Source: an uncultured Lachnospiraceae bacterium (GTDB taxonomy: Bacteria > Bacillota > Clostridia > Lachnospirales > Lachnospiraceae). From it: a DNA stretch of 64,000 nt. Shown piece by piece: positions 1-15,066 of the stretch (its first letter is position 1; every line of letters starts with the position of its first letter). The stretch lies in assembly GCA_947175035.1 (NCBI GenBank), contig CAMWLG010000001.1, positions 26,982-90,981 on the forward strand, in the 5' to 3' direction. The notes beneath the pieces were generated by a model. The model was not told where the DNA came from, did not search any database, and saw only the letters and a list, made by a program, of their open reading frames with translations. A program made the translations under genes and the position numbers.

Positions 1-664
1 GACGAAGTTTATCAGCGAGCGGAACGTGCGGGAGGCGATTGTATCCGGCGACATGTTGGCGGAACACTTGCGGGAGAGGCTTTGTCAGGACGCGACGATA
101 CAGGAGTTCGGGTTGCAGGTGGTATCCCTGTCCATACTGGGAATCTCTGCCAAGCCGGATACCAGAAAGGCGCTTGAGGCGGCTACAAGAGAGGAAATAC
201 TAAAGCTTCAGGATGATGCGATTTATAAGAGAAGAAACGCTGCGATCGAGCAGGAGAGAATCGTGAAAGAGAATGAGCTGAACACGGAGATCAAGGTGGC
301 GGAGAAGGAGAAGCAGAAGCGGGAGAAAGAGATGGAGACCAAGCGGCTGGTTCAGGAAAAGCAGGCGGAATTGGATGCGAGAAAGCTGGAAAACGACATT
401 CGCTTGGAGGAGGAGAACCGAAAGCTGGTGGATCTGCAGACAGAGAACGAGAAGAAGAAATCGGATGCCAAGGCATATGATTCGGAGGTATTGTTAAAGA
501 CATTTGCGGGAATTGATCTGGAGGTGATCAAAGCATTGGCAGCCAGCGGAATGGACAGCAGGGCGCTGATTGCCAAGGCGTTCGTGGAGATTGGCGACAA
601 GGCAGGGAAGATCGGTACGCTGAATGTATCTCCGGATTTATTGGAAACGCTGATAAAACCTTGA
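1..664 (+). CDS. SPFH/band-7 (flotillin-like) protein, 5'-truncated by window edge
   Basis: The frame is open upstream of the listed GTG at 26 to the window edge. It shows an SPFH C-terminal core (FGLQVVSLSILGISAKPDTRKALEA) followed by an AE/KE-rich flotillin-like coiled coil. Confidence 0.8.
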   Translation, partial: TKFISERNVREAIVSGDMLAEHLRERLCQDATIQEFGLQVVSLSILGISAKPDTRKALEAATREEILKLQDDAIYKRRNAAIEQERIVKENELNTEIKVAEKEKQKREKEMETKRLVQEKQAELDARKLENDIRLEEENRKLVDLQTENEKKKSDAKAYDSEVLLKTFAGIDLEVIKALAASGMDSRALIAKAFVEIGDKAGKIGTLNVSPDLLETLIKP

Positions 665-673
665 TGGGGGTGA

Positions 674-1609
674 ATGGGAATGGACAGGGGTATGAATAAG
701 ATTGTGTTGGTCACAAGGAAGACCAGGCTGGAGGAGTTGGTTTATAAATATAACACCTTGGAGCAGGCAAAATTCTATATAGAGCATCTTGGGGTCGATT
801 TCTCGGATTATTTGGAGGAGGATCAAAGGTATCAACAGGCTGTGAAAGAGGTGCTGTCGGCGGCGGAGAGATTTGCCAGAGTGCAGGTAATTGACAGGTC
901 CTTTGTGCCCAATATGATCTTTGGCAGCGGGGATGTGGTGATTGCGGTGGGACAGGACGGACTGGTGGCGAACGTGATGAAGTACTTGGACGGACAGCCC
1001 CTTGTGGGAGTCAATCCAGACACCAAGAGGTGGGACGGGGTATTGCTTCCCTTTGAGCCAGGGCAGATGTCGGGGATGATTCCCAGCATTCTCGCGGGAA
1101 AATATCAGGTGAAGGATGTGACGATGGCACAGGCGGACACCGCGGACGGACAACGGATGCTGGCGGTAAACGATCTGTTTATCGGGTGTCGGACACATGC
1201 TTCTGCCCGATACCACATTATCTGCAACGGAAGCGGTGAGGATCAGTCCTCCAGCGGCATTATCGTCTCCACAGGCTTGGGCTCCACAGGGTGGTATGCG
1301 TCAGTGATAGAACAGGCAAGGCAGATCGCGGCATTCTTCCGCTGTGGGCAGATTCAGGCAAGTCCCTTGGCATGGGGGGCAGAGCGCCTCACCTTCGTGG
1401 TGAGAGAACCGTTTCCAAGCCGCGCCACACAGACGGGCATTGTGTTCGGTGCCATCGAAGGAAAGGATGATTTTCGCATCATATCCCAAATGCCGTCCGG
1501 CGGGGTTGTCTTTTCAGACGGCATGGAGGCTGACGCCATAGAATTCCACTCAGGAACAGAAATACGAATAGGAATTGCTGACAAAAGGGGGAAGTTAGTG
1601 GTATCATAG
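674..1609 (+). CDS. NAD kinase-like / diacylglycerol-kinase-fold protein
   Basis: GQDG (variant of the GGDG motif), NDLF, and SSGIIVSTGLGSTGW resembling the NADK DGxxxSTPxGSTxY motif. Confidence 0.75.
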   Translation: MGMDRGMNKIVLVTRKTRLEELVYKYNTLEQAKFYIEHLGVDFSDYLEEDQRYQQAVKEVLSAAERFARVQVIDRSFVPNMIFGSGDVVIAVGQDGLVANVMKYLDGQPLVGVNPDTKRWDGVLLPFEPGQMSGMIPSILAGKYQVKDVTMAQADTADGQRMLAVNDLFIGCRTHASARYHIICNGSGEDQSSSGIIVSTGLGSTGWYASVIEQARQIAAFFRCGQIQASPLAWGAERLTFVVREPFPSRATQTGIVFGAIEGKDDFRIISQMPSGGVVFSDGMEADAIEFHSGTEIRIGIADKRGKLVVS

Positions 1610-1642: not shown

Positions 1643-2581
1643 ATGAAGAACGGCATGAAGGCGAATGATTTACAGAGTGCTCACGAAGAGCAGGAATTTT
1701 TGGAAAAATATGACATCACCCAATATGAGAGACCTTCCATCGCAGCGGATATCGCGGCGTTCTCAATCCTGGGGGAGGGAGAGAACCATAATTTTAGAAG
1801 GCTGCCGGAGAAAGCCTTGAAACTATTGTTAATCCAGAGGGCTTCCTATCCGTACAAGGGCTGTTGGGCACTTCCGGGAGGATTCTGCAAGCCGGGCGAG
1901 GATGTTGCGGACACGGCGAGGCGGGAACTGTACGAGGAGACCAATATCAACAATGCGGATCTGCGGCTTGTGGGAATCTTCGGGGAGACAGGGAGAGATC
2001 CCAGAGGATGGATCATTTCAAATACCTTTTTGGCGCTGATGAACGGGGAAAAGTGCAGGCTGCGGGCGGACACGGATGCCTGGGCGGCGGAATGGTTCTC
2101 CGTTGGGATTGCGCGGGAGGTGCTGCAAAAGGAGTGTACCAAGGAAAGCGCAAGGATACAGACCATATATCATTTAAGCCTGGAATGCGGGGATTCCGGG
2201 ATCAAACTTTCCGCGACGGTCAAGGAGGATAAGCGGTTTCAGGATTTTCACGAGAAAGTTCGGTATGAGATTATGGACAGTGACGGGCTTGCGTTTGACC
2301 ATGCCAAGATTATATTGCATGCGTTGCTCTCGCTTCAAAAACTGGCAGGGGAAGATATGACGGCGGTATTTCACTTCCTGCCTGAGCAATTCACCTTGAC
2401 AGAGCTTCAAAATGCGATGGAGTTGGTGCAGGGCAGGAAACTGTTGACTGCCAATTTCCGAAGAAAGATAGCGGATTATGTTGTGGAGACGGAAAAGTTG
2501 TCAGAGGGGGCGGGACATAGACCAGCCAAGTTGTTTGAACGGAATGTGGAAGCTTTTTACCAGGGAGGATGCGATGGATAA
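1643..2581 (+). CDS. NrtR-like NUDIX + winged-helix regulator
   Basis: WALPGGF, Nudix box GEDVADTARRELYEET, RDPRGW, LAFDHAKI, and a C-terminal wHTH (FTLTELQ...NFRRKI...HRPAKLF). Confidence 0.85.
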   Translation: MKNGMKANDLQSAHEEQEFLEKYDITQYERPSIAADIAAFSILGEGENHNFRRLPEKALKLLLIQRASYPYKGCWALPGGFCKPGEDVADTARRELYEETNINNADLRLVGIFGETGRDPRGWIISNTFLALMNGEKCRLRADTDAWAAEWFSVGIAREVLQKECTKESARIQTIYHLSLECGDSGIKLSATVKEDKRFQDFHEKVRYEIMDSDGLAFDHAKIILHALLSLQKLAGEDMTAVFHFLPEQFTLTELQNAMELVQGRKLLTANFRRKIADYVVETEKLSEGAGHRPAKLFERNVEAFYQGGCDG

Positions 2582-3014
2582 TAATGCAATGGATTTCAGT
2601 ACCGGTCAACTTATGAAGGAGCTTAGATTTACACGGATTATCTGTATTATTTCTTCCGTGCTGACGTTCTGTCTGTTGGTAGGCGGAGTGTTTCTGTATG
2701 GCAAAGTGCAGAAGCTGGCAGAGATCTGTGAGCCTGCGATAGAGAAGATATCTGATGTGGACGTGGAGAGTCTGAACGAGACTTTGGACAATGTGAATGC
2801 TTCTTTGGAAAGCATGGATTGGGAGCGGGTGGCAGATGTGTTGGATGAACTTGATGTGGATGCCCTTAACTCCGTGATAGAGGGACTGGACACAGAGGAG
2901 CTTACCGAAGCCTTGCAGAACTTGAATGCTATCGTGGAGAAAATCAAAGAACTCAATGAAAAAGTGAGCTCGTTTGGATCCATGTTCGGCGGAATATTTA
3001 ACCAGGGCCGATGA
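2574..3014 (+). CDS. Single-TM acidic helical-repeat hypothetical protein
   Basis: The ATG at 2574 follows GGAGG (2564-2568) and overlaps the NrtR stop. One TM helix, then DVESLNETL/DVDALNSVI/DTEELTEAL-like repeats. Confidence 0.7.
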   Translation: MDNNAMDFSTGQLMKELRFTRIICIISSVLTFCLLVGGVFLYGKVQKLAEICEPAIEKISDVDVESLNETLDNVNASLESMDWERVADVLDELDVDALNSVIEGLDTEELTEALQNLNAIVEKIKELNEKVSSFGSMFGGIFNQGR

Positions 3015-3035: not shown

Positions 3036-4856
3036 ATGATGATAAAATTACTGCCGGAGAAAAAAGGAACCTTTCTGCGCGCGTCCCTGTCTGATGTCTG
3101 TAACTTTTCCTGTGAGTATTGTGCAAAGGATATGGGGATGGAGAATCATACGCCCAAGTGTATGAATGTAGACTTATTAAGTGCGGATGATTATATCCGG
3201 AATCTGGAAAGAATTGCAGCGCACGGATTTGAAATCATATCTTTTACAGGTGGGGAACCGCTGCTTTGCAAGGATTTTGCCCGGATTGCCGAGGCGGCAA
3301 GAGGGCTGTTTGGGGTCGTGGAAATTACAACCAACGGCTCAAAGTTATTGGAGCATATGGAAACAATCCGAAAATATGTGGATGTATTGAAGATATCCGT
3401 TGATGCAGTGGATGATGATCTGCGGGTAAAAATTACCCGCAATGCCGATGCCAGGGATACCCTACAGGTTGTGGAGACCTGCTGTAAAGCAAACATTGCA
3501 CAGATGGGACTGAATTTTGTCTATATGAAACAGAATGCGGAAGAGTTGTCCCGACTGATTGCATTTGTAAAAGAACTGAATCAGAAGTATCATACCAATA
3601 TTTATATCAGCGTTCTGGATTTGTATTATTCCAAAGAAAACGATGCGTTCTGGCGGGAGCAATTCGTCAATTTGAAAGAACTGAGACAGTCATTGGAAGC
3701 AAAGGGCATCACGGTTCACCAAAGACTGAGAGTCGGCTGTGATTCCTATTACTGCATCTGGGACGGAGTCAGGGTTAATATGAAAGACAGCATGTCCTGT
3801 ACGCACAGGAGCGAAATGTGTCAGGAATGTGAGTGTTATTGTCAGGAAGGTATCTACAGCCTGAAGCATTCCGCAAGCGGCTGGCTTAGCGTCTGCCCTT
3901 CCAACGATGTGAAACTCGGCGCCCTGCTTCAGGAAGATGATGCAGAACAACAGATTGACCGATTTGTGGACATTTTGAACCATCTTACAAGAGTTCCGGA
4001 TACCGGATGGAATTTTATGGAAAAGAACGGTCTGTGCGATCAGCCGCATTTGATGAAACCTCAAGTCAGAGAATGCCTTGCTCTTTACCATAATATTAAG
4101 AGGCGGGCGAGAACATACTGTGAGGAACACGGGTTTCTGGAGTTTGATACGCCCGTGCTCACAAAATATGCCGGAGAACCCTATAATCCGACATTTTCCG
4201 TTTCGGTGGAAGAAAAAGCGATGCATCTGGCCGACTCGCCGCAGGTGTACAAAATGCTCCTGATGCTTTCCGGCTATGACAGATACTATCAGTTTGCACA
4301 TTGTTTCCGGCCGATCGCACACGAAAATGCTTCGGACACGCATTTGCAGGAATTCATACAGCTTGATCTGGAGCTGCATGTGGATTCTCTCGACGAACTG
4401 ATGGAGCTTGCCGGAGACCTGCTTCAATCTATTTGTGGAGACACGCCCTTTGAATTGATACCACACCTGCCGCTGACGACCGGGAAAAAGGGCGTTCATG
4501 GTGGTATTATGCCGGAACATCATATCTTTGCAATGCCTGAAAATCTGAATATTGGTCAAAATCATACGCTTCCGGAACCGGCGGATCTGCTTCAGGTAAA
4601 GACAGAATCCTTCGATATTGTATTGAATGGTATGGAAGTGGGCGGCGGTGATATGCGTATTATGGATGCTGCCTTGCAGGAAGCCATGATGGATCTTTTT
4701 CAGGTGGACAAAAGGGCATACCGGGATTATCTGCAAGCGCTCGGCCGCTATCACGGCAGACCTTTTGGCGGATTTGCAATTGGTCTTGAACGGCTGGTCA
4801 TGGCCATGTCAGGCGTGCCGGATATTAGAGATACAACCCCTTTGATATCATGTTGA
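3036..4856 (+). CDS. Radical SAM (MoaA-like) domain fused to an AspRS-like class II aminoacyl-tRNA synthetase catalytic domain
   Basis: N-half: CNFSCEYC, FTGGEPLL, ITTNG and a C-terminal Cys cluster (CQECECYCQEG...C). C-half: GFLEFDTPVL, SPQVYKMLLMLSGYDRYYQFAHCFR, EFIQLDLE, HHIF, NGMEVGGGDMRI, GGFAIGLERL. Confidence 0.8.
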   Translation: MMIKLLPEKKGTFLRASLSDVCNFSCEYCAKDMGMENHTPKCMNVDLLSADDYIRNLERIAAHGFEIISFTGGEPLLCKDFARIAEAARGLFGVVEITTNGSKLLEHMETIRKYVDVLKISVDAVDDDLRVKITRNADARDTLQVVETCCKANIAQMGLNFVYMKQNAEELSRLIAFVKELNQKYHTNIYISVLDLYYSKENDAFWREQFVNLKELRQSLEAKGITVHQRLRVGCDSYYCIWDGVRVNMKDSMSCTHRSEMCQECECYCQEGIYSLKHSASGWLSVCPSNDVKLGALLQEDDAEQQIDRFVDILNHLTRVPDTGWNFMEKNGLCDQPHLMKPQVRECLALYHNIKRRARTYCEEHGFLEFDTPVLTKYAGEPYNPTFSVSVEEKAMHLADSPQVYKMLLMLSGYDRYYQFAHCFRPIAHENASDTHLQEFIQLDLELHVDSLDELMELAGDLLQSICGDTPFELIPHLPLTTGKKGVHGGIMPEHHIFAMPENLNIGQNHTLPEPADLLQVKTESFDIVLNGMEVGGGDMRIMDAALQEAMMDLFQVDKRAYRDYLQALGRYHGRPFGGFAIGLERLVMAMSGVPDIRDTTPLISC

Positions 4857-4881
4857 CATTTCCGTCAAATCATTGCATAAT
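4853..4881 (+). promoter_or_regulatory. Sigma70/SigA-type promoter for the hybrid kinase
   Basis: TTGACA-17 nt-CATAAT, 43 nt upstream of the ATG at 4925. Confidence 0.5.
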
Positions 4882-4924: not shown

Positions 4925-7774
4925 ATGTTGAACGTATTTCTTATCGCTGAAATCTTTGCAATTGTTATGATATATATCGCCATGGCGCTGTTGATTACGG
5001 ATGGCAGCGGCGCAAGGGAGCAGAAGCTGATGGGGTATTTTCTGTGCGGCTCCCTGATACAGAATGTAGGGTATTTTCTGGAATTGACCGCATCTACGCA
5101 GGAGACGGCGATTATATCTGTCAAAATGCAATATCTTGGCTCTATTTTTATCCCACTGTGCTATTGTTGGTTTATATACAGCTATTGTTACGCAAAGCCG
5201 CCCATGAAGTTATTGAGTGCGCTGGGCGTGATTGATTTTGGGCTGCTGTTGACGGTCTTTACACTGGACTGGCACAAGCTCTATTATAGGCAGATAGAGT
5301 GGCTGATGGCAGAGGATGGACATTATTATCTGAGTCTTGAATATGGATCCGGATATGTGGTGTTTCTCGTCTGTGGCTGTGTCATACCTTATTGTATGAC
5401 CATTTATTCGCTGTCCTCCGCTTGGGGGCGCAAAGACAACAGGAGATACAAGACAATTACGTGTCTGTCAATGCTTCCGGTGCTGGCGCTCTTGGCGTAT
5501 GCGGGCAAACTGACCTATGGGTTTGACCCAACCCCGTCGGTGTTGGGGCTGGTGCTCTCTCTGGTGGTCATCCTGATTTGGAGACAGAGGACTCGTGACT
5601 TTCGCTGGATGGCGGCGGAGGTGCTTTTGGACAGCATGAGCGACGGCGTGATTGCCATGGATACAGAGAATCGGATACTGAATTTTAATCGGGCGGCGGC
5701 AGAGATTTTCCCGGAACTTGGCACACATAAATTAGGTGATTTCATTGCAGATGTTAAGGGTTTTCCCGTGGATTTGCTGGAGGAGAATGCCAACAGGGAG
5801 TTTGACTTAAGCGACCGGCATTACGAGAGTCACACGAGGGTGATCCTGGATAAAAATAATCAGCCGCAGGGTAATGTCGTACTAATACTGGATGTGACAG
5901 ATACGAGGAATTATATAGAGGAGATCAAGCGCGTGAGGGAGCAGGCGGAGCGCGCGAATATGGCAAAGAGCGAATTCCTTGCCAATATGTCCCATGAGAT
6001 TCGCACCCCAATGAATGCTATAATAGGTTTGAGTGATATTATTATTGAGGAGAGCACCGGGAGGAAAATGTATACCTATGCCTGTGATATCAAGTCGGCG
6101 TCCCAGAATCTTCTTGCCATTATCAATGACATTTTGGATCTGTCCAAGGTGGAGGCGGGCAAGATGGAATTGGTGATGTCGGAGTATCACGTGAAAGCTG
6201 TCGTGGATGAAGTGGTACATATGATGGATATTGCAGCATCCCAGAGAGGGCTCTTGATGAAGTATGAGTATGATATGGGCATACCCAGCCGGTATTACGG
6301 GGATGAGGGCAGGATGAAACAGATTCTGATCAATCTGTTGAACAATGCCGTGAAATTCACCAAGGAAGGATATGTCAAGATTACCGTGGGCGGCAGACCC
6401 GGGCGGACACAGGACGAGGAGCTGTTGGTATTCCAGGTACAGGACACGGGATGCGGCATCAGGGAGGAAGATCAGGAGAAAATATTCGAGAATTTCAAAC
6501 AGGTTGACTCTAACAGGAATCGCAGCGCCGAGGGAACCGGGCTGGGGCTTTCTATCACCAGGCATCTGGTGCAGCTCATGGAGGGGGATATCTCGCTTCA
6601 GAGTGTCTACGGGGAGGGGACTACTTTTACAGTGACGATCCCTCAAAGAATCGTGGACAGACGTACCTTGGAGGAACTGCCGGGTGCTCCTGCCGTTATG
6701 GAGGAAAGGCTGGAGCCCTTTATCGCCCCCAATGTGAAGGTGCTGGTGGTGGATGACAATCTGATCAACAGAAAGGTCGCCAGAGGGTTTTTGAATACCT
6801 ATCAATTTGATTTGGCGGAGGCGGCCAGCGGCTTTGATGCAATAGAACTGGTAAAAAATACAAAATATGACATTGTTTTTATGGATCATATGATGCCTGA
6901 GATGGACGGAATCGAGACTGTGCGGAATATTCGCAGGGATTGCGGAGAGAATGGCACGAGTCCCATTTTCATAGCACTGACAGCAAATGCCATGGAGGGG
7001 GTTCGGGAGTTGTTCATTAAGAACGGTTTTCAGGATTTCCTGACCAAGCCTCTGGACAGAAAACAGTTAAACGAGGTATTGCTGAAGTGGATTCCCGAGG
7101 AGCGCAGGGAAGCGGTCGAGGCGCGAAACAACTGGCAGCGGGTCGAGAGTCATGGCGGGTTTCAGGACATCCGCATCGAGGGAATCGATATGGATGCCGT
7201 TGTGAAAAATCAGTCCGGTTCCGTGGAAGACTATGTGGAGCTTTTAAGTCTGTACGGCATGGATGGTAAGCGCAAGCTTCCCCTGCTAAAGGAACTCTGT
7301 GGTGCGAAGGATTACAAAAATTATGGGATAGAGGTGCACGCTCTAAAAAGTGCGTCGGCAAACGTGGGGGCAATGAGTCTTTCGGCGGCGGCAAAAGCGC
7401 ATGAGGAGGCGGCGAACCGTGAGGATGAAGAATTTATCGCGGGGCATTTTGAGGAGCTTACTGCCGCTTATGAAGAACAGCTTAAGTCGATTCAGGCTTT
7501 TCTGGACATGAGGGAAGGGAATGCCGGGGATGAGGAGAAGCTTCCTGAGATAGGCCGAAAGACCCTTATAGACAAGGTGCGGGAGGCGTTGGAGAGCCTG
7601 GAGCGTTTCCGTTCCAAGGAATGCGCCGCCAAGGTGGAGGAGCTGTTGCAGCACCGTCTCGATGAAGATACGAAATCAAGGCTGAAAGAAGTTCAATCGC
7701 AGTTGAAACTGTATGAAGATACCGAGGCGGAACATATGCTCGCTGAGATCATAAATATACTTGAAGAAAAATAG
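4925..7774 (+). CDS. Hybrid sensor histidine kinase (multi-TM N-terminus, PAS, HisKA, HATPase, REC, Hpt)
   Basis: H-box FLANMSHEIRTPMNAIIG, N-box LLNNAVKFT, G-boxes DTGCGI and GTGLGL, REC VLVVDD...FMDHMMP...KP, Hpt VHALKS. Confidence 0.92.
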   Translation: MLNVFLIAEIFAIVMIYIAMALLITDGSGAREQKLMGYFLCGSLIQNVGYFLELTASTQETAIISVKMQYLGSIFIPLCYCWFIYSYCYAKPPMKLLSALGVIDFGLLLTVFTLDWHKLYYRQIEWLMAEDGHYYLSLEYGSGYVVFLVCGCVIPYCMTIYSLSSAWGRKDNRRYKTITCLSMLPVLALLAYAGKLTYGFDPTPSVLGLVLSLVVILIWRQRTRDFRWMAAEVLLDSMSDGVIAMDTENRILNFNRAAAEIFPELGTHKLGDFIADVKGFPVDLLEENANREFDLSDRHYESHTRVILDKNNQPQGNVVLILDVTDTRNYIEEIKRVREQAERANMAKSEFLANMSHEIRTPMNAIIGLSDIIIEESTGRKMYTYACDIKSASQNLLAIINDILDLSKVEAGKMELVMSEYHVKAVVDEVVHMMDIAASQRGLLMKYEYDMGIPSRYYGDEGRMKQILINLLNNAVKFTKEGYVKITVGGRPGRTQDEELLVFQVQDTGCGIREEDQEKIFENFKQVDSNRNRSAEGTGLGLSITRHLVQLMEGDISLQSVYGEGTTFTVTIPQRIVDRRTLEELPGAPAVMEERLEPFIAPNVKVLVVDDNLINRKVARGFLNTYQFDLAEAASGFDAIELVKNTKYDIVFMDHMMPEMDGIETVRNIRRDCGENGTSPIFIALTANAMEGVRELFIKNGFQDFLTKPLDRKQLNEVLLKWIPEERREAVEARNNWQRVESHGGFQDIRIEGIDMDAVVKNQSGSVEDYVELLSLYGMDGKRKLPLLKELCGAKDYKNYGIEVHALKSASANVGAMSLSAAAKAHEEAANREDEEFIAGHFEELTAAYEEQLKSIQAFLDMREGNAGDEEKLPEIGRKTLIDKVREALESLERFRSKECAAKVEELLQHRLDEDTKSRLKEVQSQLKLYEDTEAEHMLAEIINILEEK

Positions 7775-7836
7775 TGATATGGTATAATATGACCATATTT
7801 ATGTTGTCTGTAATGGCAGCAGGAATGGAGGATGAA

Positions 7837-8223
7837 ATGGCGACAATATTGGCGGTGGATGACAGCCCTATCAATCTGGCGACGATTGAGCAGAAATTGA
7901 AGGACAGTTATGAGGTGATTCCCGTGAATTCCGGTTTTCGGGCTTTGCAATACCTCAAGTCAGAGAAGACGCCGGATTTGATTCTTCTGGATATCAGGAT
8001 GGCGGAGAAGGACGGAATAGAGACCTTGAAGGAGATTCGGGAGATGAGGGGCGGGGCGGATATTCCCGTGATAATGCTCACATCCCAAAATGACAAAGAA
8101 TCTATCATGGAAAGCCAGAAATTGGGAATTTATGATTATGTGCTGAAACCCTTTGATACAGCGGATTTGCACGACAGAATCCGACGTGCGCTGCAAAAGG
8201 CAAAAGAGGCTTCAAATGATTGA
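7837..8223 (+). CDS. Single-domain response regulator (REC)
   Basis: ILAVDD, LLDIRM, KPF. ATG at 7837 follows GGAGG. Confidence 0.88.
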   Translation: MATILAVDDSPINLATIEQKLKDSYEVIPVNSGFRALQYLKSEKTPDLILLDIRMAEKDGIETLKEIREMRGGADIPVIMLTSQNDKESIMESQKLGIYDYVLKPFDTADLHDRIRRALQKAKEASND

Positions 8224-8314
8224 CAAAAAAAAATAAATGGTTTATCATAGCAATAGTATACTAAGGCTCAAAGAACGTAGAAATGCGCTGCCTTGAGTTC
8301 GTGGGAGGCAAAAA

Positions 8315-9127
8315 GTGATTACCGATAGTGAATTTCAACGTATAGTGATGTACATGCATAAAAATTACGGCATAGACCTGAGCCAGAAAAAGGTTCTGGT
8401 GAGCGGTCGTTTGGAGAATTATCTCGCCCGCAATGGTTATGCGAGTTATGACGAGTACATGGCGAAGGTGGAGAAGAACCCTAATGGGCCGGAGGCCACG
8501 GATATTGTCAATGTACTGACTACCAATCATACATATTTTATGCGTGAGAGCGCTCATTTTGATTATTTGGCGCAGGTTGTGCTGCCGTGGGCAAAGATGA
8601 AAGCGGCGAGAGACAAAGATCTGCGTATATGGTGCGGCGCATCATCCACGGGGGAGGAACCATACACCCTCGCAATGGTGTTGCTTGATTTTTTTGGACT
8701 GGAACACAAGTCATGGGATACCAGGGTTTTGGCAACGGATGTGTCCACCAGAGTGTTGACGCATGCCACCAAGGGCATTTACCTCAAGGAGCAGGTTGAC
8801 CCCCTGCCCGCGAAGTGGAAGCAGCGGTATTTCAAGCAGATAAGTGCTGAAGAATACTCGGTGAAGGATGAGCTGAAACAGGAGGTAATTTTCCGGCAGT
8901 TTAATCTGATGAATCCATTCCCGTTCAAGAGGAAGTTTCATGTGGTCTTTCTGAGGAATGTGATGATTTATTTCCCCAGCGATGTCAAGGCGCAGTTGAT
9001 CCAGAAGATTTATGATTATACGGAGCCGGGCGGCTATCTGTTTATAGGCACCACGGAGAGTCTTGACCGGCACCAGAATCCATTCCAATATGTACAGCCA
9101 TCAATCTATAGAAAGCAGGGAGGCTGA
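8315..9127 (+). CDS. cheR: Chemotaxis protein methyltransferase CheR
   Basis: TTNHTYFMRE, IWCGASSTGEEPYTLAM, LATDVS, FLRNVMIYF. Confidence 0.95.
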   Translation: MITDSEFQRIVMYMHKNYGIDLSQKKVLVSGRLENYLARNGYASYDEYMAKVEKNPNGPEATDIVNVLTTNHTYFMRESAHFDYLAQVVLPWAKMKAARDKDLRIWCGASSTGEEPYTLAMVLLDFFGLEHKSWDTRVLATDVSTRVLTHATKGIYLKEQVDPLPAKWKQRYFKQISAEEYSVKDELKQEVIFRQFNLMNPFPFKRKFHVVFLRNVMIYFPSDVKAQLIQKIYDYTEPGGYLFIGTTESLDRHQNPFQYVQPSIYRKQGG

Positions 9128-9130
9128 TAT

Positions 9131-10153
9131 ATGAGACCAATTAGAGTGTTAGTTGTAGATGACTCCTTGATGTTCCGCAATATGCTTGTGAAGGGACTGG
9201 CTTCTGACCCTAATCTTGAGGTGGTGGCTCAGGCGGGGGATGCCTATGAAGCAAGGGATGCCATTATTAAATACAAACCGGATGTAATGACGCTTGACGT
9301 GGAGCTGCCGCGGATGAGCGGTATAGAGTTTTTGAGAAGGCTGATGCCCCAGTACCCGCTTCCTGTTGTCATGATCAGTTCTCTAAACGGCAAGGTCTTT
9401 GACGCTTTGGAGGCAGGGGCGGTTGACTTTGTCAACAAACCCAGCAATATGAATCAGGCGCAGCTCAATGATTTCCTGACACAGGAGCTCGCGGCAAAGG
9501 TTAAGATTGCATCCACGGCGAAGGTTGGGAAGCTGAAGCGCGTGGAGAACGACCCCATGATGGGTCATGCCAGTGTGGTTGGCAAGGACCGGATCATTGC
9601 CATCGGCGCTTCCACGGGAGGCACAGAGGCGATTTTCGAGGTTGTGAAGAGATTTAAGCGGGATATTCCGGGGGTTGTCATTGTGCAGCACATGCCGCCC
9701 GGATTCACCAAGATGTATGCGGATCGTCTGAACAACCAGTGTGAGGTGGCGGTGAAGGAGGCACAGACCGGCGACAGGGTGCTGCCGGGACAGGTGTTGA
9801 TCGCACCGGGTGATATGCAGATGCGTCTCGTCAAAGTGGGCGGGGTTTATCAGGTGGAATGCAAAGGAAATGAGAGAGTCAACGGGCATTGTCCTTCTGT
9901 GGATGTGTTGTTTAATTCCGTGGCGAAGCTGGCGGGCAAGAATGCCATTGGCGTGATCCTGACAGGTATGGGCGGAGACGGGGCCAAGGGGCTTCTGGAG
10001 ATGCGCAATGCCGGCGCCCAGACCATCGGACAGGATGAGGCGTCCTGCGTGGTCTATGGGATGCCCAAGGTTGCCTTTGATATCGGGGCAGTACAGTATA
10101 AGATGGATTTAGCGGCGATAGCAGGCAAGGTATACAGCCTGTTGAGCAAATAG
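9131..10153 (+). CDS. cheB: Chemotaxis response regulator protein-glutamate methylesterase CheB
   Basis: N-terminal REC plus IGASTGG, VQHMPPGFT, HCPSVDVLF, LTGMGGDGA. Confidence 0.96.
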   Translation: MRPIRVLVVDDSLMFRNMLVKGLASDPNLEVVAQAGDAYEARDAIIKYKPDVMTLDVELPRMSGIEFLRRLMPQYPLPVVMISSLNGKVFDALEAGAVDFVNKPSNMNQAQLNDFLTQELAAKVKIASTAKVGKLKRVENDPMMGHASVVGKDRIIAIGASTGGTEAIFEVVKRFKRDIPGVVIVQHMPPGFTKMYADRLNNQCEVAVKEAQTGDRVLPGQVLIAPGDMQMRLVKVGGVYQVECKGNERVNGHCPSVDVLFNSVAKLAGKNAIGVILTGMGGDGAKGLLEMRNAGAQTIGQDEASCVVYGMPKVAFDIGAVQYKMDLAAIAGKVYSLLSK

Positions 10154-10178
10154 AAAGTGGGAAAGGAGCAAGGTGCGG

Positions 10179-10568
10179 ATGAAAATTTTATTGGCAGAGG
10201 ATGATTTCGCCAGCCGGAAGTTTATGGATAAACAGCTGTCGCGTTACGGGGAATGTGATGTGATGGTAGACGGCGAAGAAGCAGTGGATGCCTTTATGAT
10301 GGCCTTGGAGGATGAACCGTACGATCTGGCATGTCTGGACGTGATGATGCCTGTTATGGATGGGTATCAGGTTCTGAAAGCGATCCGTGATATAGAGGCG
10401 CAGAAGGGCATACCCAAGAGCAAGCGTGTGAAAGTCATTATGACTACGGCGCTGAATGACGAGCGCAACGTGAAGATGGCGTTCGAGCTTGGGTGCGAAG
10501 CTTATGCGGGGAAACCTATCGATATGGAAAAGTTTGAAAAGGTGTTGAAGAAGCTGGAGCTGATTTAA
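10179..10568 (+). CDS. CheY-like single-domain response regulator
   Basis: ILLAEDD, LDVMMP, MTTA, KPI. Lies between cheB and cheA. Confidence 0.85.
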   Translation: MKILLAEDDFASRKFMDKQLSRYGECDVMVDGEEAVDAFMMALEDEPYDLACLDVMMPVMDGYQVLKAIRDIEAQKGIPKSKRVKVIMTTALNDERNVKMAFELGCEAYAGKPIDMEKFEKVLKKLELI

Positions 10569-10600
10569 CCGTCAGAGAAATCCTTTAGAATGGAGGAAGT

Positions 10601-12730
10601 ATGGCAGAAGAATTTAACACAGACAGTATGCTTTCCATGTTTTTGTACGAGAGCAACCAGGGTTTGGAAAAGCTGGAAGGCATTATTTTGGAAAAACAGG
10701 ATGCAGATTGCTTTGACGATGCCGATATCAATGAAATTTTCCGTATCATGCACACCATCAAGGGTTCATCCGCTGTTTTGATGTATGAAAACATCAAGAC
10801 CGCATCCCACAAGCTGGAGGATGTATTCTACTACCTGCGGGAATCCCATCCGGAAAACGTGCCTCACAAGGAGTTGGTGGAAAAGGTACTTGCCGTATCG
10901 GATTTCATCACAGGTGAGCTTGACAAAATCAAGGATGGCGACAACCCGGATGGCGATGAAAAAGAGTTGGTAGCGGATTTGGAGGAGTTTCTGGGAGAAC
11001 TCAAAGGCGAGATCAAGAAGCAGGGTATCAGGCTTCCCAAAGCGAATAAGCAGGAGGAGCCGACCCAGTTCTACATTACGCCTGTGGCGGAGCCGGACAG
11101 TCATTTTTATCGGATTGTGATTCGTTATCGGAGCGATACACAGATGAGTAATATCCGCGCCTACAGCGCCACTTATGCGCTGAAGGAAGTGGCGGAGGAT
11201 TTGCTCTATACGCCGGAGGACATTCTTTCCAACGAGGCAAGCCATGACAGCATTCTGGCGGAAGGCTTTCATATGCTCCTGCAGACGAAGGCTTCCAAGG
11301 AAGAGGTTATGGAGCTGATAGACAGCTCAGAGGCGGAAACGATTGATTTTGACGAGATTAACAGTACGGAGTACGGCAAGGCGCTGACAGAATTCGGACG
11401 GGAGGCACCGCCCATCGTCATTAATCTGGGTGATGAAAAGGGCGAGGCAAAGGGTGAAAAGCAGCAGGCGCCCATTGCTCCCGGCGACTATGTGGTGAAG
11501 TCCAAGGAGACAGGAAAGGGCAAGACCCTGGCGAAGAACCAGCCGAAACAGCAGGCCATCATCAGTGTGAATATTGAGAAGATGGATGCCCTCATGGACA
11601 TGATTGGAGAGCTGGTGATCGCGGAGGCAACAGTGCTGCAGAACCCGGATCTGAAGGTGCCGGGGTTGGATCTCACCAATTTCCAGAAGGCGGCAGCGCA
11701 GCTGGCAAAAAACACTACAGAGCTGCAGGATGTCATCATGTCCATGCGTATGATGCCCCTTACCAGTGTGTTCCAGAAGATGCGGCGTATTGTCTTCGAT
11801 GTTTCCAGAAAGCTGGGAAAGGATATTGAGTTTGAAGTGATCGGTGAGAACACGGAAGTGGATAAAAATATTATCGAACACATTTCCGACCCGCTGATGC
11901 ACCTTGTGAGAAACTCTGTAGACCACGGCATCGAGGATAACCCGGATCTGCGCACGGCCAACGGAAAGTCGGCGAAGGGTAAAATTACCCTGGAGGCGAA
12001 AAACGAAGGCGGCAAGGTATATATCAGCGTCAGGGATGACGGCAAAGGACTTAATAGAGAGAAACTTTATAACAAGGCGTTTGAGAACGGACTGATTGGC
12101 GACAAGCCCATGAGCGAGTTCTCGGATAAGGATATTTTCAAGTTCATCACACTGCCTGGTTTTTCCACCAAAGAGGAGGTAACGGAATACTCTGGGCGTG
12201 GAGTGGGAATGGATGTGGTGGTAAAAAATATCCAGTCCATCGGAGGACGCCTTGAGATTGACAGCGTTGAGGGACAGGGATCAGAGATGACTTTGGTCAT
12301 ACCGCTGACCCTTGCGATTATCAGCGGCATTGTGATACAGGTAGGCGAGGCGCCGTTTGTGATTGAGATGGCATCCATCAAAGAGTTCATCAGTGTGACT
12401 GAGGATGCCCTCATACAGGAACCCGGAGGAGAAGAGTATATTGTCCTGCGAGGCGACTGTTTCCCCTTTATCCGTCTGGGTGAAAAATACGACCTGCCGG
12501 GAGCAAAGAGCAAGCTGGAGGAAGGAATTGTAGCTGTCGTGGAGCACGAAGGGCAACAGATATGTATCCTGATCGACAAGATACTCCAGGAACAGGAAAT
12601 CGTGGTAAAGCCGATTCCTTCCTATGTTAAGAAAGTAAAGGGACTTTCGGGCTGTACCCAGCTTGGAGACGGAAGTATTGCTTTAATCCTGGATGTTGGA
12701 GGGTTGATGATAGAGGAGGAAAGGAGATAG
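10601..12730 (+). CDS. cheA: Chemotaxis histidine kinase CheA
   Basis: Hpt FRIMHTIKGSS, P3 MDMIGELVIA, HLVRNSVDHG, DDGKG, GFST, GRGVGMDVV, C-terminal CheW domain. Confidence 0.96.
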   Translation: MAEEFNTDSMLSMFLYESNQGLEKLEGIILEKQDADCFDDADINEIFRIMHTIKGSSAVLMYENIKTASHKLEDVFYYLRESHPENVPHKELVEKVLAVSDFITGELDKIKDGDNPDGDEKELVADLEEFLGELKGEIKKQGIRLPKANKQEEPTQFYITPVAEPDSHFYRIVIRYRSDTQMSNIRAYSATYALKEVAEDLLYTPEDILSNEASHDSILAEGFHMLLQTKASKEEVMELIDSSEAETIDFDEINSTEYGKALTEFGREAPPIVINLGDEKGEAKGEKQQAPIAPGDYVVKSKETGKGKTLAKNQPKQQAIISVNIEKMDALMDMIGELVIAEATVLQNPDLKVPGLDLTNFQKAAAQLAKNTTELQDVIMSMRMMPLTSVFQKMRRIVFDVSRKLGKDIEFEVIGENTEVDKNIIEHISDPLMHLVRNSVDHGIEDNPDLRTANGKSAKGKITLEAKNEGGKVYISVRDDGKGLNREKLYNKAFENGLIGDKPMSEFSDKDIFKFITLPGFSTKEEVTEYSGRGVGMDVVVKNIQSIGGRLEIDSVEGQGSEMTLVIPLTLAIISGIVIQVGEAPFVIEMASIKEFISVTEDALIQEPGGEEYIVLRGDCFPFIRLGEKYDLPGAKSKLEEGIVAVVEHEGQQICILIDKILQEQEIVVKPIPSYVKKVKGLSGCTQLGDGSIALILDVGGLMIEEERR

Positions 12731-12733
12731 CAC

Positions 12734-13249
12734 ATGGCGGATGAAGTAAAGGAAGAACTGCTGGAAGAAGATGCCTCAAAAGGAAAGTTTATGACGTTCC
12801 AGACAGGGAGGGAGTATTTCGGCATAAGCATCAGTTATGTAAGTGAAATCATCCAGATGCAGCCGATCACAGCGATACCCGAAGCAGAAGACTATATCAA
12901 AGGCCTGATTAATCTTCGTGGTAAGATTATTCCCGTGATTGATGTTCGTGTAAGGTTTAAGATGGATCCTATTGAATACACGGACAGAACATGTATTATT
13001 GTGATTGACGTAAAATCAACGGTGATTGGACTGATTGTGGAGAAGATAGCAGAGGTGGTCGATATTATGGAGGATGATGTTGTACCACCGCCCACGCTGG
13101 GAGGACATAAGGACAATGAGAAAAGCAAATATGTCTACGGTCTGGCGAGGACAGGAGATACCATGAAGCTGCTGTTAGATCCGGAAAAGCTGATTAAACA
13201 AGAGGACTTGGATATTCTTGAAGAGATTCAGGAAGAAGAACAATCATAA
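12734..13249 (+). CDS. cheW: Chemotaxis coupling protein CheW
   Basis: [29 protein letters not shown]. Confidence 0.95.
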
Positions 13250-13281
13250 AGAAAAACAATCATAAAGAAGGAGAGTTTACC

Positions 13282-15066
13282 ATGAAGAAGAATTTTTCAA
13301 TCAATGATATGCCTGTAAAAATCAAAATCAGAATGTTCACTATCGTGATGCTGGTGTTTATGGTCATCATCGCGGGAGTGGGCCTGTTTACTGCGACCAA
13401 CATCAACAAGGTTCGCAAGGACAGCTATGACAATTATGCCATGAGCCAGTATTATGTATCAAATGCTTTCACTAATTTTTCACAGATGGAGACCTACCTC
13501 AGAAATATCCTGTTCTATTACTATAATGACGCAGCGGGGGCGTCAAAACAGACTACCCTGATCGAACAGAATTACAACGAGATGGTAGAGAATTTTGCTA
13601 TGTTTGAGGCGAATCTGCCTGAGTTGGCTCCCGACATTAAGACCCAGTATGATAAGGTGAAGAATGCGGCGGATAAGTGGAAGTCTTCCATGGAAGACGA
13701 GATTCGGAAAGCAATGGGCGGCAACCAGCAGGGCGCAATCACGGAACTGCTAAATAACGGCAAGGCGTTGGCAGACACTGCAGAGGCGGAGACGGTTACG
13801 CTGATTAATATGCTGGCTGAGGATGCCAATGAGCATGATCAGGAAGTACACAACCAAATGATTGCGCTGATTGCTGTAATGTGTGCAGTTGCGCTGATCG
13901 CAATTTTCATCGGATTTGCATATGCGGCTGTGATGACACGTGCCATCACTCTTCCTATCGAGAAACTGACCGTTGCAGCCAAGAAGCTGGAGAACGGTGA
14001 TATAGACGTAGACTGTCAGAAGATTAACAATGATGACTTGGGCGACTTGATGGATGCGTTTGCACAAATGGCAAACGGTATTAAGGATCAGGTAAGAGTG
14101 GCTGACGTAGTGGCAAAGGGAGATTACACTGTAGACGTAAAGCTTCGCAGCGACAGGGATGTCCTTGGCAAAGCGCTGCAGAAGCTGGTGCATGACGAGA
14201 ACAGAACCTTGAGCAACATTAAAGAGGCCGGCGCTCAGATTACCGTAGGTTCCGAGCAGGTGGCAAATGCCAGCCAGGCTCTGGCGCAGGGTTCTACCGA
14301 GCAGGCAAGCGCAATTCAGCAGGTAACTGCTTCTATGGACGAGGTGACACAGCGCACCAAGGAGAACGCTACCGAGGCGGGTCAGGCAAGCAACTTGGTA
14401 CACAATATCAAGAATATGGCAGCGGAAGGCAACGAGCAGATGAAGTCCATGATCCAGGCTATGGACAGCATCAACGAGTCCTCCGAGACGATTTCCAAGA
14501 TTATCAAGACAATTGATGATATTTCCTTCCAGACCAATATCCTGGCTCTGAATGCTGCAGTTGAGGCTGCAAGAGCAGGCGTGCATGGCAAGGGCTTTGC
14601 AGTGGTGGCAGAAGAAGTCAGAAATCTGGCTGCCAAGAGTGCATCCGCTGCAGGTGAAACTGCTGAGATGATTGAGGATTCCATCCGCAAGGTGGCTACC
14701 GGTACCAAGATCGCAGAAGAAACTGCTAAGTCTCTGGATGCAATCGTGAAGTCCATTGATGAGATTGTGGTGCTGATCAGCAATATCACAGCTTCCTCCA
14801 ATGAGCAGGCGACAGCAATTTCCCAGATTGACCAGGCAATCTCCCAGGTATCCACAGTGGTACAGACCAATGCTGCTACCAGCGAGCAGTGTGCGGCAGC
14901 CAGCGAGGAGCTTTCCAACCAGGCGGTTACCCTTAGAAACCTTATCGGTCAGTATAAGCTGCTCACAAACGGTCAGGGCGGAGGATTTTCTTCTGACAGC
15001 TTTGGTATGTCCTCCTACAGCAGTGAGCCGGTGATTTCTTTAGAAGGCGACTTTAGCAAATATTAA
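13282..15066 (+). CDS. Methyl-accepting chemotaxis protein
   Basis: Two TM helices around a four-helix sensor, HAMP, and the signalling hairpin [34 protein letters not shown]. Confidence 0.95.

Follow-up and report, generated by a model that had tools for sequence, protein, structure and literature searches.

A 64,000-nucleotide (nt) stretch of DNA from an uncultured Lachnospiraceae bacterium (GenBank assembly GCA_947175035.1, contig CAMWLG010000001.1, positions 26,982 to 90,981 of the forward strand), called the window below, encodes a 606-amino-acid (aa) protein in which a MoaA-like radical S-adenosylmethionine (SAM) enzyme is fused to the catalytic core of a bacterial-type aspartyl-tRNA synthetase (AspRS). 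The same two parts occur together, as one gene or as two neighbors, in a small group of mostly gut and rumen bacteria, under a predicted operator that also precedes genes of nicotinamide adenine dinucleotide (NAD) metabolism. Judged from sequences and models, the protein is probably a small-molecule enzyme pair of NAD/ADP-ribose metabolism that uses aspartyl adenylate (Asp-AMP), with a rough probability of 0.55; ADP-ribose in particular is a tentative choice of substrate.

The fused gene is a single uninterrupted open reading frame (ORF; coordinates of this and other features are given in Table 1) with a ribosome-binding site, GGGAGAAG, rated good, just upstream. A preliminary description of the window, made from its sequence alone, had already read it as one such ORF with a radical SAM domain and an AspRS-type core, devoid of the OB-fold anticodon domain and the GAD insertion of AspRS, and had recognized the architecture from no characterized enzyme; each of these statements has held. 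Pfam detects Radical_SAM (PF04055) at residues 18-177 (E 3e-23, 83.1 bits against a cut-off of 29.5) and tRNA-synt_2 at residues 339-606 (E 4e-47, above the cut-off), and its scan of the ORF gave no match to tRNA_anti-codon (PF01336) or GAD (PF02938). Bacterial AspRS heads the NCBIfam ranking (~146 bits), followed by MoaA (105 bits), but every equivalog score is far under its cut-off, and the protein is claimed by no curated family. Homologs are named "radical SAM protein", "MoaA" or "amino acid--tRNA ligase-related protein" in databases, and the literature searched contains no description of the fusion. AlphaFold modeled the full protein with a pLDDT of 88.3 and the radical SAM domain alone with one of 94.2; in Foldseek comparisons of the models, AspRS ranks first for the C-terminal half and MoaA for the N-terminal one, the latter with TM scores of 0.65-0.70.

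The N-terminal half belongs to the radical SAM superfamily by its CX3CX2C motif, its GGE motif and its PF04055 score. The motifs pointed out in the preliminary description are all present: CNFSCEYC with C22, C26 and C29, GGEP at residues 72-75, TTNG at residues 98-101, and an auxiliary cysteine cluster with the spacing C262-x2-C265-x3-C269 ... C287, which is embedded in K250-D-S...T256-H-R258 and Y268-C-Q-E-G-I-Y-S-L-K-H-S. A further stretch immediately past the SAM cluster motif, G34-M-E-N37-H-T-P40, is a hallmark of the family. MoaA is the best PDB profile match of this half (3.7e-19), and the MoaA structures 2fb2 and 1tv7 are the top Foldseek matches of its model (E 2e-15), followed by viperin-like enzymes, SkfB, BlsE, AbmM and DesII. 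Nearly all of these structural neighbors act on the sugar of a nucleotide or of a nucleoside diphosphate (NDP)-sugar.

The C-terminal half aligns with E. coli AspRS (PDB 1c0a) over AspRS residues 129-249 and 441-551 only. Within these segments are kept E171, S193-P-Q195, K198, R217, F229, Q231, D233, E235, H448-H449, D475 and E482, as well as the GGG turn, R489 and R537, so that retention of the Asp and ATP pockets, as described earlier, is borne out by the alignment; the pocket residues are conserved throughout the family, and the concern that they might not be can be set aside. Motif 2 reads FRPIAHE, in which a 3-residue insertion places the Glu at R+5 instead of R+2; this form, overlooked in the preliminary description, is invariant in the family. 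The family also retains two signatures of bacterial AspRS, HH-I-F-A-x-P and YG-x-x-KPD-L/I-R. Since the stand-alone ligases keep the latter, which in AspRS is the segment preceding the GAD domain, the family is a descendant of bacterial AspRS that has lost its OB and GAD domains.

A scan of 185,579 species, with one genome per species, yielded 22-23 true loci of the radical SAM/AspRS-like pair. Carriers are Lachnospiraceae, Oscillospiraceae, Ruminococcus and unclassified Bacillota, mostly metagenome-assembled genomes (MAGs) from gut or rumen, and include Mobilisporobacter senegalensis DSM 26537 and Robinsoniella. No locus has the two parts apart: they are fused in 6 and encoded by two adjacent or overlapping genes in 16. 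The six fused loci form one clade and have in common a 34-aa deletion in the AspRS-like half that is specific to them. Independent assemblies contain the fusion (loci L017-L021 and protein clusters P0002-P0011), and a protein search of NCBI, ENA and Logan assemblies recovered ~10 fused clusters (75-90% identity) and, in larger number, radical SAM proteins that stand alone (46-66% identity). Comparison with five fused orthologs, at dS of 0.3-1.5, gave dN/dS values of 0.07-0.12 in the radical SAM half and 0.13-0.20 in the ligase half. Because the fusion recurs in a clade with a shared deletion and is under purifying selection, it is not the product of a lost stop codon or a misassembly, nor is it unique to one assembly, which the preliminary description had considered as possible undoings; these comparisons make it a fixed, selected Rosetta-stone event derived from a two-gene module. 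The module is rare: of the 401 Lachnospiraceae genera sampled, 3 carry it, and a phyletic profile across the family was dropped because three genera are too few for statistics.

Some of these loci have peculiarities of their own. The contig of L021 (JAMPHH010000083.1) is labeled as a Muribaculum sp. MAG, but its region from nrtR to cheA is 89% identical and fully syntenic to the window; most likely a Lachnospiraceae contig was binned wrongly. Directly 3′ of the fusion in L020 (11794-12660) and L039 (10848-11735, minus strand) lies a ~290-aa gene of unassigned family; the L039 fusion gene is truncated to 217 aa before this insert, and the adjacent nrtR is missing in both loci. The insert may be a mobile element disrupting the operon.

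The genomic context of the pair points to NAD metabolism. First, a gene for an NrtR-type regulator (Nudix plus winged helix) is the sole recurrent neighbor, present in 16 of 23 loci and mostly directly downstream, while it lies upstream of the fusion in the window and in L021. No third conserved component was found among the loci, the 270-330-aa neighbors of different loci being mutually unrelated. Second, of 19 assessable loci, 18 have a 25-bp palindrome, TGWTAWTAWCA-N3-TGWTAWTAWCA, upstream of the pair; in each of the 14 split loci with upstream sequence it adjoins a TTGACA/TATAAT promoter 5′ of the radical SAM gene, and split loci lacking an adjacent nrtR also have it. Third, in L018, L020 and L039 the fused gene lies within an operon of pncA, a Prs-like gene, a gene of the NAPRTase family (pncB), nadE, the fusion and nrtR, with the same palindrome 5′ of pncA; nadE overlaps the start of the fusion gene by 4 nt in L018 and L019. 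When 19 complete carrier assemblies were searched for the pattern, it matched 35 times in the forward form and 5 times as the reversed control. Additional operons headed by the palindrome consist of a microbial PARG gene, pnuC and nadR; of an nrtR paralog, pncA, pncB and kptA; of pncA, a Prs-like gene and pncB, then nadE or nrtR; and of an SPFH gene, an NAD kinase (NADK)-like gene and nrtR.

In the genome of the window itself, three tandem operator sites (G000:C1:26546-26609) lie ~375-435 bp before the window start, just 5′ of the SPFH gene that opens the fusion operon, and overlap a TTGACA-17-TATCAT promoter upstream of that gene. When a position weight matrix built from 22 operator sites was scanned over the 3.55-Mb assembly, the three best sites all preceded this operon and nothing else exceeded 15 bits. 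The predicted operator thus stands before the pair, before NAD operons of the same genomes and at the top-scoring sites, and by it the pair is a member of the clostridial NrtR (NAD/ADP-ribose) regulon. This membership narrows the likely acceptor of the ligase to an NAD-related small molecule. The literature searched describes no radical SAM or aminoacyl-tRNA synthetase (aaRS)-like member of an NrtR regulon. The Clostridium regulon was described as nrtR-pncA-pncB-nadD-nadE, with ADP-ribose as the effector of NrtR, and two unexplained regulon genes, nrtX and nrtY, have already been reported (Rodionov et al., 2008; PMC2330246).

The regulon contains a further pair of genes. A divergent gene of the PRPP-synthetase-like (Prs-like) type, ~270 aa long with only weak Pribosyltran matches, lies between pncA and the NAPRTase/NAMPT-family gene (L018, 6915-9192; also L071 and L072), and the two resemble Adps and Namat, the phage NARP1 enzymes that rebuild NAD from ADP-ribose (10.1101/2024.02.11.579819). 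It is conceivable that bacteria recycle ADP-ribose to nicotinate adenine dinucleotide (NaAD) through this pair together with PncA and NadE.

The relatives of the two halves were also followed beyond the module. A profile search with the radical SAM domain revealed a sister clade at 35-42% identity with the same signatures, namely G-M-E-N past the SAM cluster, KDS..T.R and C..C..YCQEG..KHS..G...CP. Alongside the GMEN-type MoaA-like enzyme, its loci (L080, L081-L085 and L038) encode a B12-binding radical SAM enzyme, an aminotransferase and an RmlD-like/HAD fusion, sometimes with a peptidase S66, a GT2-like/MGS-like transferase or an Orn/DAP decarboxylase. Four of six such loci also contain a class IIb aaRS paralog of LysRS type that scores under the LysRS cut-offs, one of them without the anticodon domain. 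The cluster is apparently undescribed and has the look of a pathway whose product is a sugar or nucleoside decorated with an amino acid. Because the sister clade sits with LysRS-type paralogs and sugar-nucleotide tailoring genes, the association of these radical SAM enzymes with class IIb aaRS paralogs is recurrent, with two independent origins (AspRS type and LysRS type), and is tied to sugar-nucleotide chemistry.

Two more distant ligases were met. One, P0209 (L078/L079, 4859-9975), is an anticodon-less AspRS-like ligase at 41% identity with no radical SAM partner; its gene overlaps the 3′ end of a 1049-aa CHAT-domain gene, precedes a gene of the metallo-beta-lactamase fold and lies on an element with a DUF927 primase-like gene, and the locus may be a conflict system. 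The other, P0211 (34% identity), is the first gene of a Streptomyces cluster (L076, 2565-13560) that also encodes an AMP-binding enzyme, an FAD oxidoreductase, a PIG-L deacetylase, a UDP-glucose dehydrogenase and an aminotransferase, and is probably an amino-sugar natural-product pathway.

Under the reading preferred here, NAD turnover would raise ADP-ribose, NrtR would leave its operator, and the module would be expressed. The ligase half would form L-aspartyl-AMP and hand the aspartyl group to a non-tRNA nucleophile, while in the radical SAM half a 5′-deoxyadenosyl radical would take a hydrogen from a nucleotide-type substrate, either at its ribose or at its aspartyl part, a sugar-directed chemistry modeled on the nearest structural relatives, MoaA, viperins, BlsE, AbmM and DesII; the order of the two reactions is as presumptive as the specificity for aspartate. 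The candidate substrates are NAD-derived ribonucleotides, ADP-ribose first and then NaAD, NAD or nicotinamide mononucleotide, or alternatively the aspartyl adenylate itself. ADP-ribose is the NDP-sugar of NAD metabolism; as the specific substrate it is a possible but rather doubtful choice. The preliminary description had proposed an Asp-activating aaRS paralog that works with its radical SAM partner on a non-tRNA acceptor, which fits the evidence, but nothing ties the pair to EF-P, peptides or RNA.

Several observations weigh against this reading. The residues with which MoaA grips the GTP triphosphate (K69, R71 and N124) are not conserved in the fused protein. The fused ortholog L017 has neither the operator nor a nearby NrtR gene, and some NrtR-family regulators control genes outside NAD metabolism, such as AraR in Bacteroides (PMC4666351). 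Because relatives of the ligase lie in a Streptomyces cluster and beside a CHAT protease, the ligase family is not bound to NAD as such. NadD is present in 23 of 23 carriers, whereas NadA, NadB and NadC occur as a complete set in 11 and are missing altogether in 12; in view of this pattern, replacement of a canonical NAD enzyme was rejected, the pair being no simple substitute for NadA, NadB, NadC or NadD. The Prs-like gene occurs in 7 of 23 carriers and the NADK-like gene in 4, without strict co-occurrence, and a dependency of the module on these regulon genes was rejected as well. Finally, the proposed substrate is a guess.

Among the other explanations, the one that survives best, though it is itself improbable, is an O2-independent de novo route to the pyridine ring, in which Asp-AMP would be the substrate of the MoaA-like enzyme and would be combined with a small carbon unit, through radical formation of a C-C bond, to give nicotinate, quinolinate, nicotinate mononucleotide (NaMN) or NaAD, bypassing NadB and NadA; the nicotinate ring would be built or re-attached on ribose or ADP-ribose, so that aspartate, ATP and SAM would give an NaMN/NaAD-type precursor without NadA, NadB or NadC. 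Aspartate is the natural precursor of the pyridine ring, the pair lies within the NAD regulon, the fusion shares one operon with pncB and nadE in L018, L020 and L039, and all genomes with the fused form are among the 12 carriers that lack nadA, nadB and nadC. However, the other 11 carriers already have a complete nadABC, and the nadABC-less carriers that were examined possess salvage genes (pncA and pncB in the genome of the window; pncA-pncB by the fusion in L018, L020 and L039). Moreover, niacin auxotrophy is common among Lachnospiraceae, of which only the three genera mentioned carry the pair, and no third enzyme or donor of a C3 unit is conserved. A literature search on an aspartate/formate route in Clostridium butylicum returned nothing relevant.

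A small chance is left to the modification of a macromolecule in the manner of EpmA/EpmB or GluQRS, that is, aspartylation of a protein (EF-P-like), a tRNA or another RNA nucleoside, with the radical SAM half preparing or further modifying the site. Anticodon-less paralogs such as EpmA (on EF-P) and GluQRS (in queuosine) do so, and the radical SAM domain occupies the N-terminal place held by the OB domain in AspRS. But no conserved target gene lies beside the pair, control by an NAD/ADP-ribose repressor has no obvious link to a translation factor, and remodeling has affected the motif-2 loop, with which AspRS contacts the acceptor end of its tRNA. The suggestion in the preliminary description of a counterpart to EpmA/EpmB comes down to a formal analogy, as the radical SAM half is MoaA-like and not of the lysine-aminomutase type, and the ligase is derived from AspRS and scores 49.8 with the EpmA model against a cut-off of 286.9.

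The pair could also make an aminoacyl-nucleotide antimetabolite, a stabilized analog of aspartyl adenylate of the microcin C/albomycin type, or a viperin-like antiviral nucleotide when NAD depletion signals infection or competition, which is likewise improbable. The N-terminal half matches PADLOC pVip models (E 2.6e-23), a MATE exporter lies beside the pair in two loci, the sister clusters contain a peptidase S66, the family of the microcin C immunity enzyme MccF, and the 41%-identical ligase is found by a CHAT protease on a mobile element. Yet the pVip matches extend no further than the generic radical SAM core (residues 18-181 or 18-224), and the viperin NCBIfam model (NF038283) gives 76.6 against a cut-off of 180; membership in pVip was rejected on this score and for want of defense neighbors. 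No defense gene surrounds the pair, no linked immunity gene or second AspRS accompanies it, and its operator is common to housekeeping salvage genes. Searches of 50,697 phage and 72,556 plasmid records found no homologs of the module but ordinary aspS only, and an origin in defense or mobile elements was rejected.

Much less probable is an AsnA-like amidation, in which the beta-carboxylate of aspartate would be activated for the synthesis of asparagine or for supply of amide nitrogen (for example, to an NH3-dependent NadE) and the radical SAM half would be unrelated or accessory. AsnA is indeed an AspRS-derived catalytic core, and the 4-nt overlap of nadE with the fusion gene would suit this role; AsnA models, however, score 46-49 bits against cut-offs of 309-368 whereas bacterial AspRS models score 145-147, the family retains both bacterial AspRS signatures given above, and the obligate coupling to a radical SAM enzyme would be left unexplained. 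A non-functional artefact of an assembly frameshift or a recently lost stop codon, suggested by the fact that the two parts are separate genes overlapping in different frames in most relatives, can practically be dismissed in view of the fused form in six species-level genomes and ~10 clusters at 90% identity from NCBI, ENA and Logan, the common 34-aa deletion, and dN/dS of 0.07-0.20 in both halves at dS of up to ~1.5.

In the window, the fusion is the last gene of a five-gene operon that runs from the SPFH gene through the NADK-like gene, nrtR and a small membrane protein gene (Table 1). The gaps are 9, 33 and 21 nt, the frame of the small membrane protein as listed overlapping the 3′ end of nrtR; its true start is probably later. 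No convincing terminator was found inside the operon. Pfam matches NAD_kinase to the NADK-like product weakly (E 0.038), the NrtR gene is the only one in the genome, and the small membrane/coiled-coil protein occurs only in the window and in L021. The genome carries pncA, pncB and genes like pnuC and PARG as well as kptA; nadA, nadB and nadC were not found in it. An operator-controlled operon of SPFH, NADK-like and nrtR genes also occurs in genomes G409 (L070), G414 (L073) and G401, and it may correspond to the nrtX-nrtY genes of Rodionov et al. (2008). Inside the aaRS-like half, an antisense ORF of 354 aa with a GTG start (3690-4754, minus strand) is taken as spurious because homology and dN/dS favor the plus-strand frame. 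Directly 3′ of the fusion (4925-15066, plus strand) follow a hybrid histidine kinase (7TM, PAS, HisKA, HATPase, REC and Hpt), with its own promoter-like site at 4853-4881, and a chemotaxis set of REC, CheR, CheB, REC, CheA and further genes; this region looks ordinary and unrelated to the fusion. An Rfam search of the window gave no match to a regulatory RNA.

Table 1. Features of the fused gene and its operon (positions in the window).
Feature	Position	Strand	Basis or remark
Fused radical SAM/AspRS-like ORF (P0001), 606 aa	3036..4856	+	uninterrupted ORF; stop codon 4854-4856
MoaA-like radical SAM domain, residues 1-335	3036..4040	+	Pfam PF04055; PDB profile; Foldseek; invariant columns
C22-x3-C26-x2-C29 (CNFSCEYC), ligands of the SAM-binding [4Fe-4S] cluster	3099..3122	+	invariant in 51 sequences
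Auxiliary-cluster region, C235, C262, C265, C269 and C287 invariant	3738..3896	+	alignment columns; motifs common to sister clade
Bacterial-type AspRS catalytic core, residues 339-606, class II motifs 1-3	4050..4853	+	Pfam; alignment to 1c0a
SPFH/Band-7 gene, 3′ part, operon gene 1	2..664	+	starts 356 nt before the window (G000:C1:26626)
Diverged NAD-kinase-like protein, 311 aa, operon gene 2	674..1609	+	motifs GQDG and STGLGSTGW
NrtR-type regulator, NUDIX + winged helix, 312 aa, Nudix box nearly intact (RELYEETN)	1643..2581	+	
Small membrane-anchored coiled-coil protein, 178-aa ORF	2478..3014	+	ends 21 nt before the fused gene

The synthesis and salvage of NAD in bacteria are thought to be fully mapped, and the module would add an undescribed reaction to them. 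It would also widen the short list of aaRS paralogs that act off tRNA, which comprises EpmA, AsnA, HisZ, GluQRS and the amino acid:carrier protein ligases, and the AspRS-type and LysRS-type partnerships suggest a general, unrecognized alliance of radical SAM enzymes with class IIb aaRS paralogs. An aaRS-paralog ligase with a radical SAM partner is a known kind of system; that a new reaction class is found here is a real but unproven chance. If so, the enzyme logic would be new, with an aminoacyl adenylate as the substrate of radical chemistry, Asp-type in the fusion and Lys-type in the sister clusters. If the de novo route were true, gut anaerobes that appear to be niacin auxotrophs would be prototrophs, with a bearing on the predictions of niacin auxotrophy in models of gut and rumen microbiomes. 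The system is tractable, as it consists of two proteins or one fused protein with defined candidate substrates and a predictable regulatory signal, and a cultured carrier exists in M. senegalensis DSM 26537.

Compared with known systems, the regulation has its counterpart in the NrtR regulons of Rodionov et al. (2008; PMC2330246), which share the Nudix plus winged-helix regulator, the palindromic operator overlapping the promoter, and the targets pncA, pncB, nadE, pnuC and nadR, but among whose targets no radical SAM or aaRS-like gene is named. MoaA has in common with the radical SAM half LRxSxxxxCNxxCxYC, GGEP, TTNG and a Cys-rich C-terminal auxiliary-cluster region. It differs in that the MoaA models score far below their cut-offs with the fused protein (TIGR02666, 105.3 against 284.05; TIGR02668, 102.5 against 325.25), that true MoaA matches carry Mob_synth_C (PF06463), absent here, and that of the GTP-contact residues of the S. 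aureus enzyme only R17 is kept, K69, R71 and N124 being changed to I, F and K, while the fused protein has extra invariant Cys residues and the unique G-M-E-N-H-T-P loop. A role as true MoaA was therefore rejected on score, domain content and changed GTP residues; no true MoaA above the cut-off was found in the genome of the window, where the fusion is the best, sub-threshold match.

The ligase half resembles AspS in motifs 1-3, the Asp pocket (Q195, K198, D233, R489 and H448), the ATP pocket, HHxFxxP and YGxxKPDLR, but has neither the OB nor the GAD domain and a remodeled motif-2 loop (FRPIAHE), and reaches 146.8 with NF001750 (cut-off 443) and 145.4 with TIGR00459 (cut-off 373.85). AsnA and archaeal AsnA-like enzymes are similar as stand-alone class IIb cores that activate aspartate for a small-molecule acceptor, whereas the family described here branches off from AspRS of the bacterial type and is invariably accompanied by a radical SAM enzyme (NF005052, 49 against 368; NF005054, 46.1 against 309). 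With EpmA (GenX/PoxA) and EpmB (YjeK), the module would share an anticodon-less class IIb paralog, an aminoacyl adenylate, a non-tRNA acceptor and a radical SAM partner. However, EpmA is LysRS-derived (TIGR00462) and EpmB is a PLP-dependent lysine 2,3-aminomutase, while the parts described here are AspRS-derived and MoaA-like with an auxiliary cluster, are obligate neighbors or fused, are under NrtR control without a link to EF-P, and have no aminomutase family among their matches. ErdS, a fungal AspRS-DUF2156 fusion that makes ergosteryl-aspartate, is a complete tRNA-dependent AspRS and uses Asp-tRNA. It resembles the present protein in that AspRS is fused to a second enzyme and aspartate is, or in our case would be, placed onto a non-protein acceptor, but the latter has lost the domains that bind tRNA and has a radical SAM enzyme as its second part.

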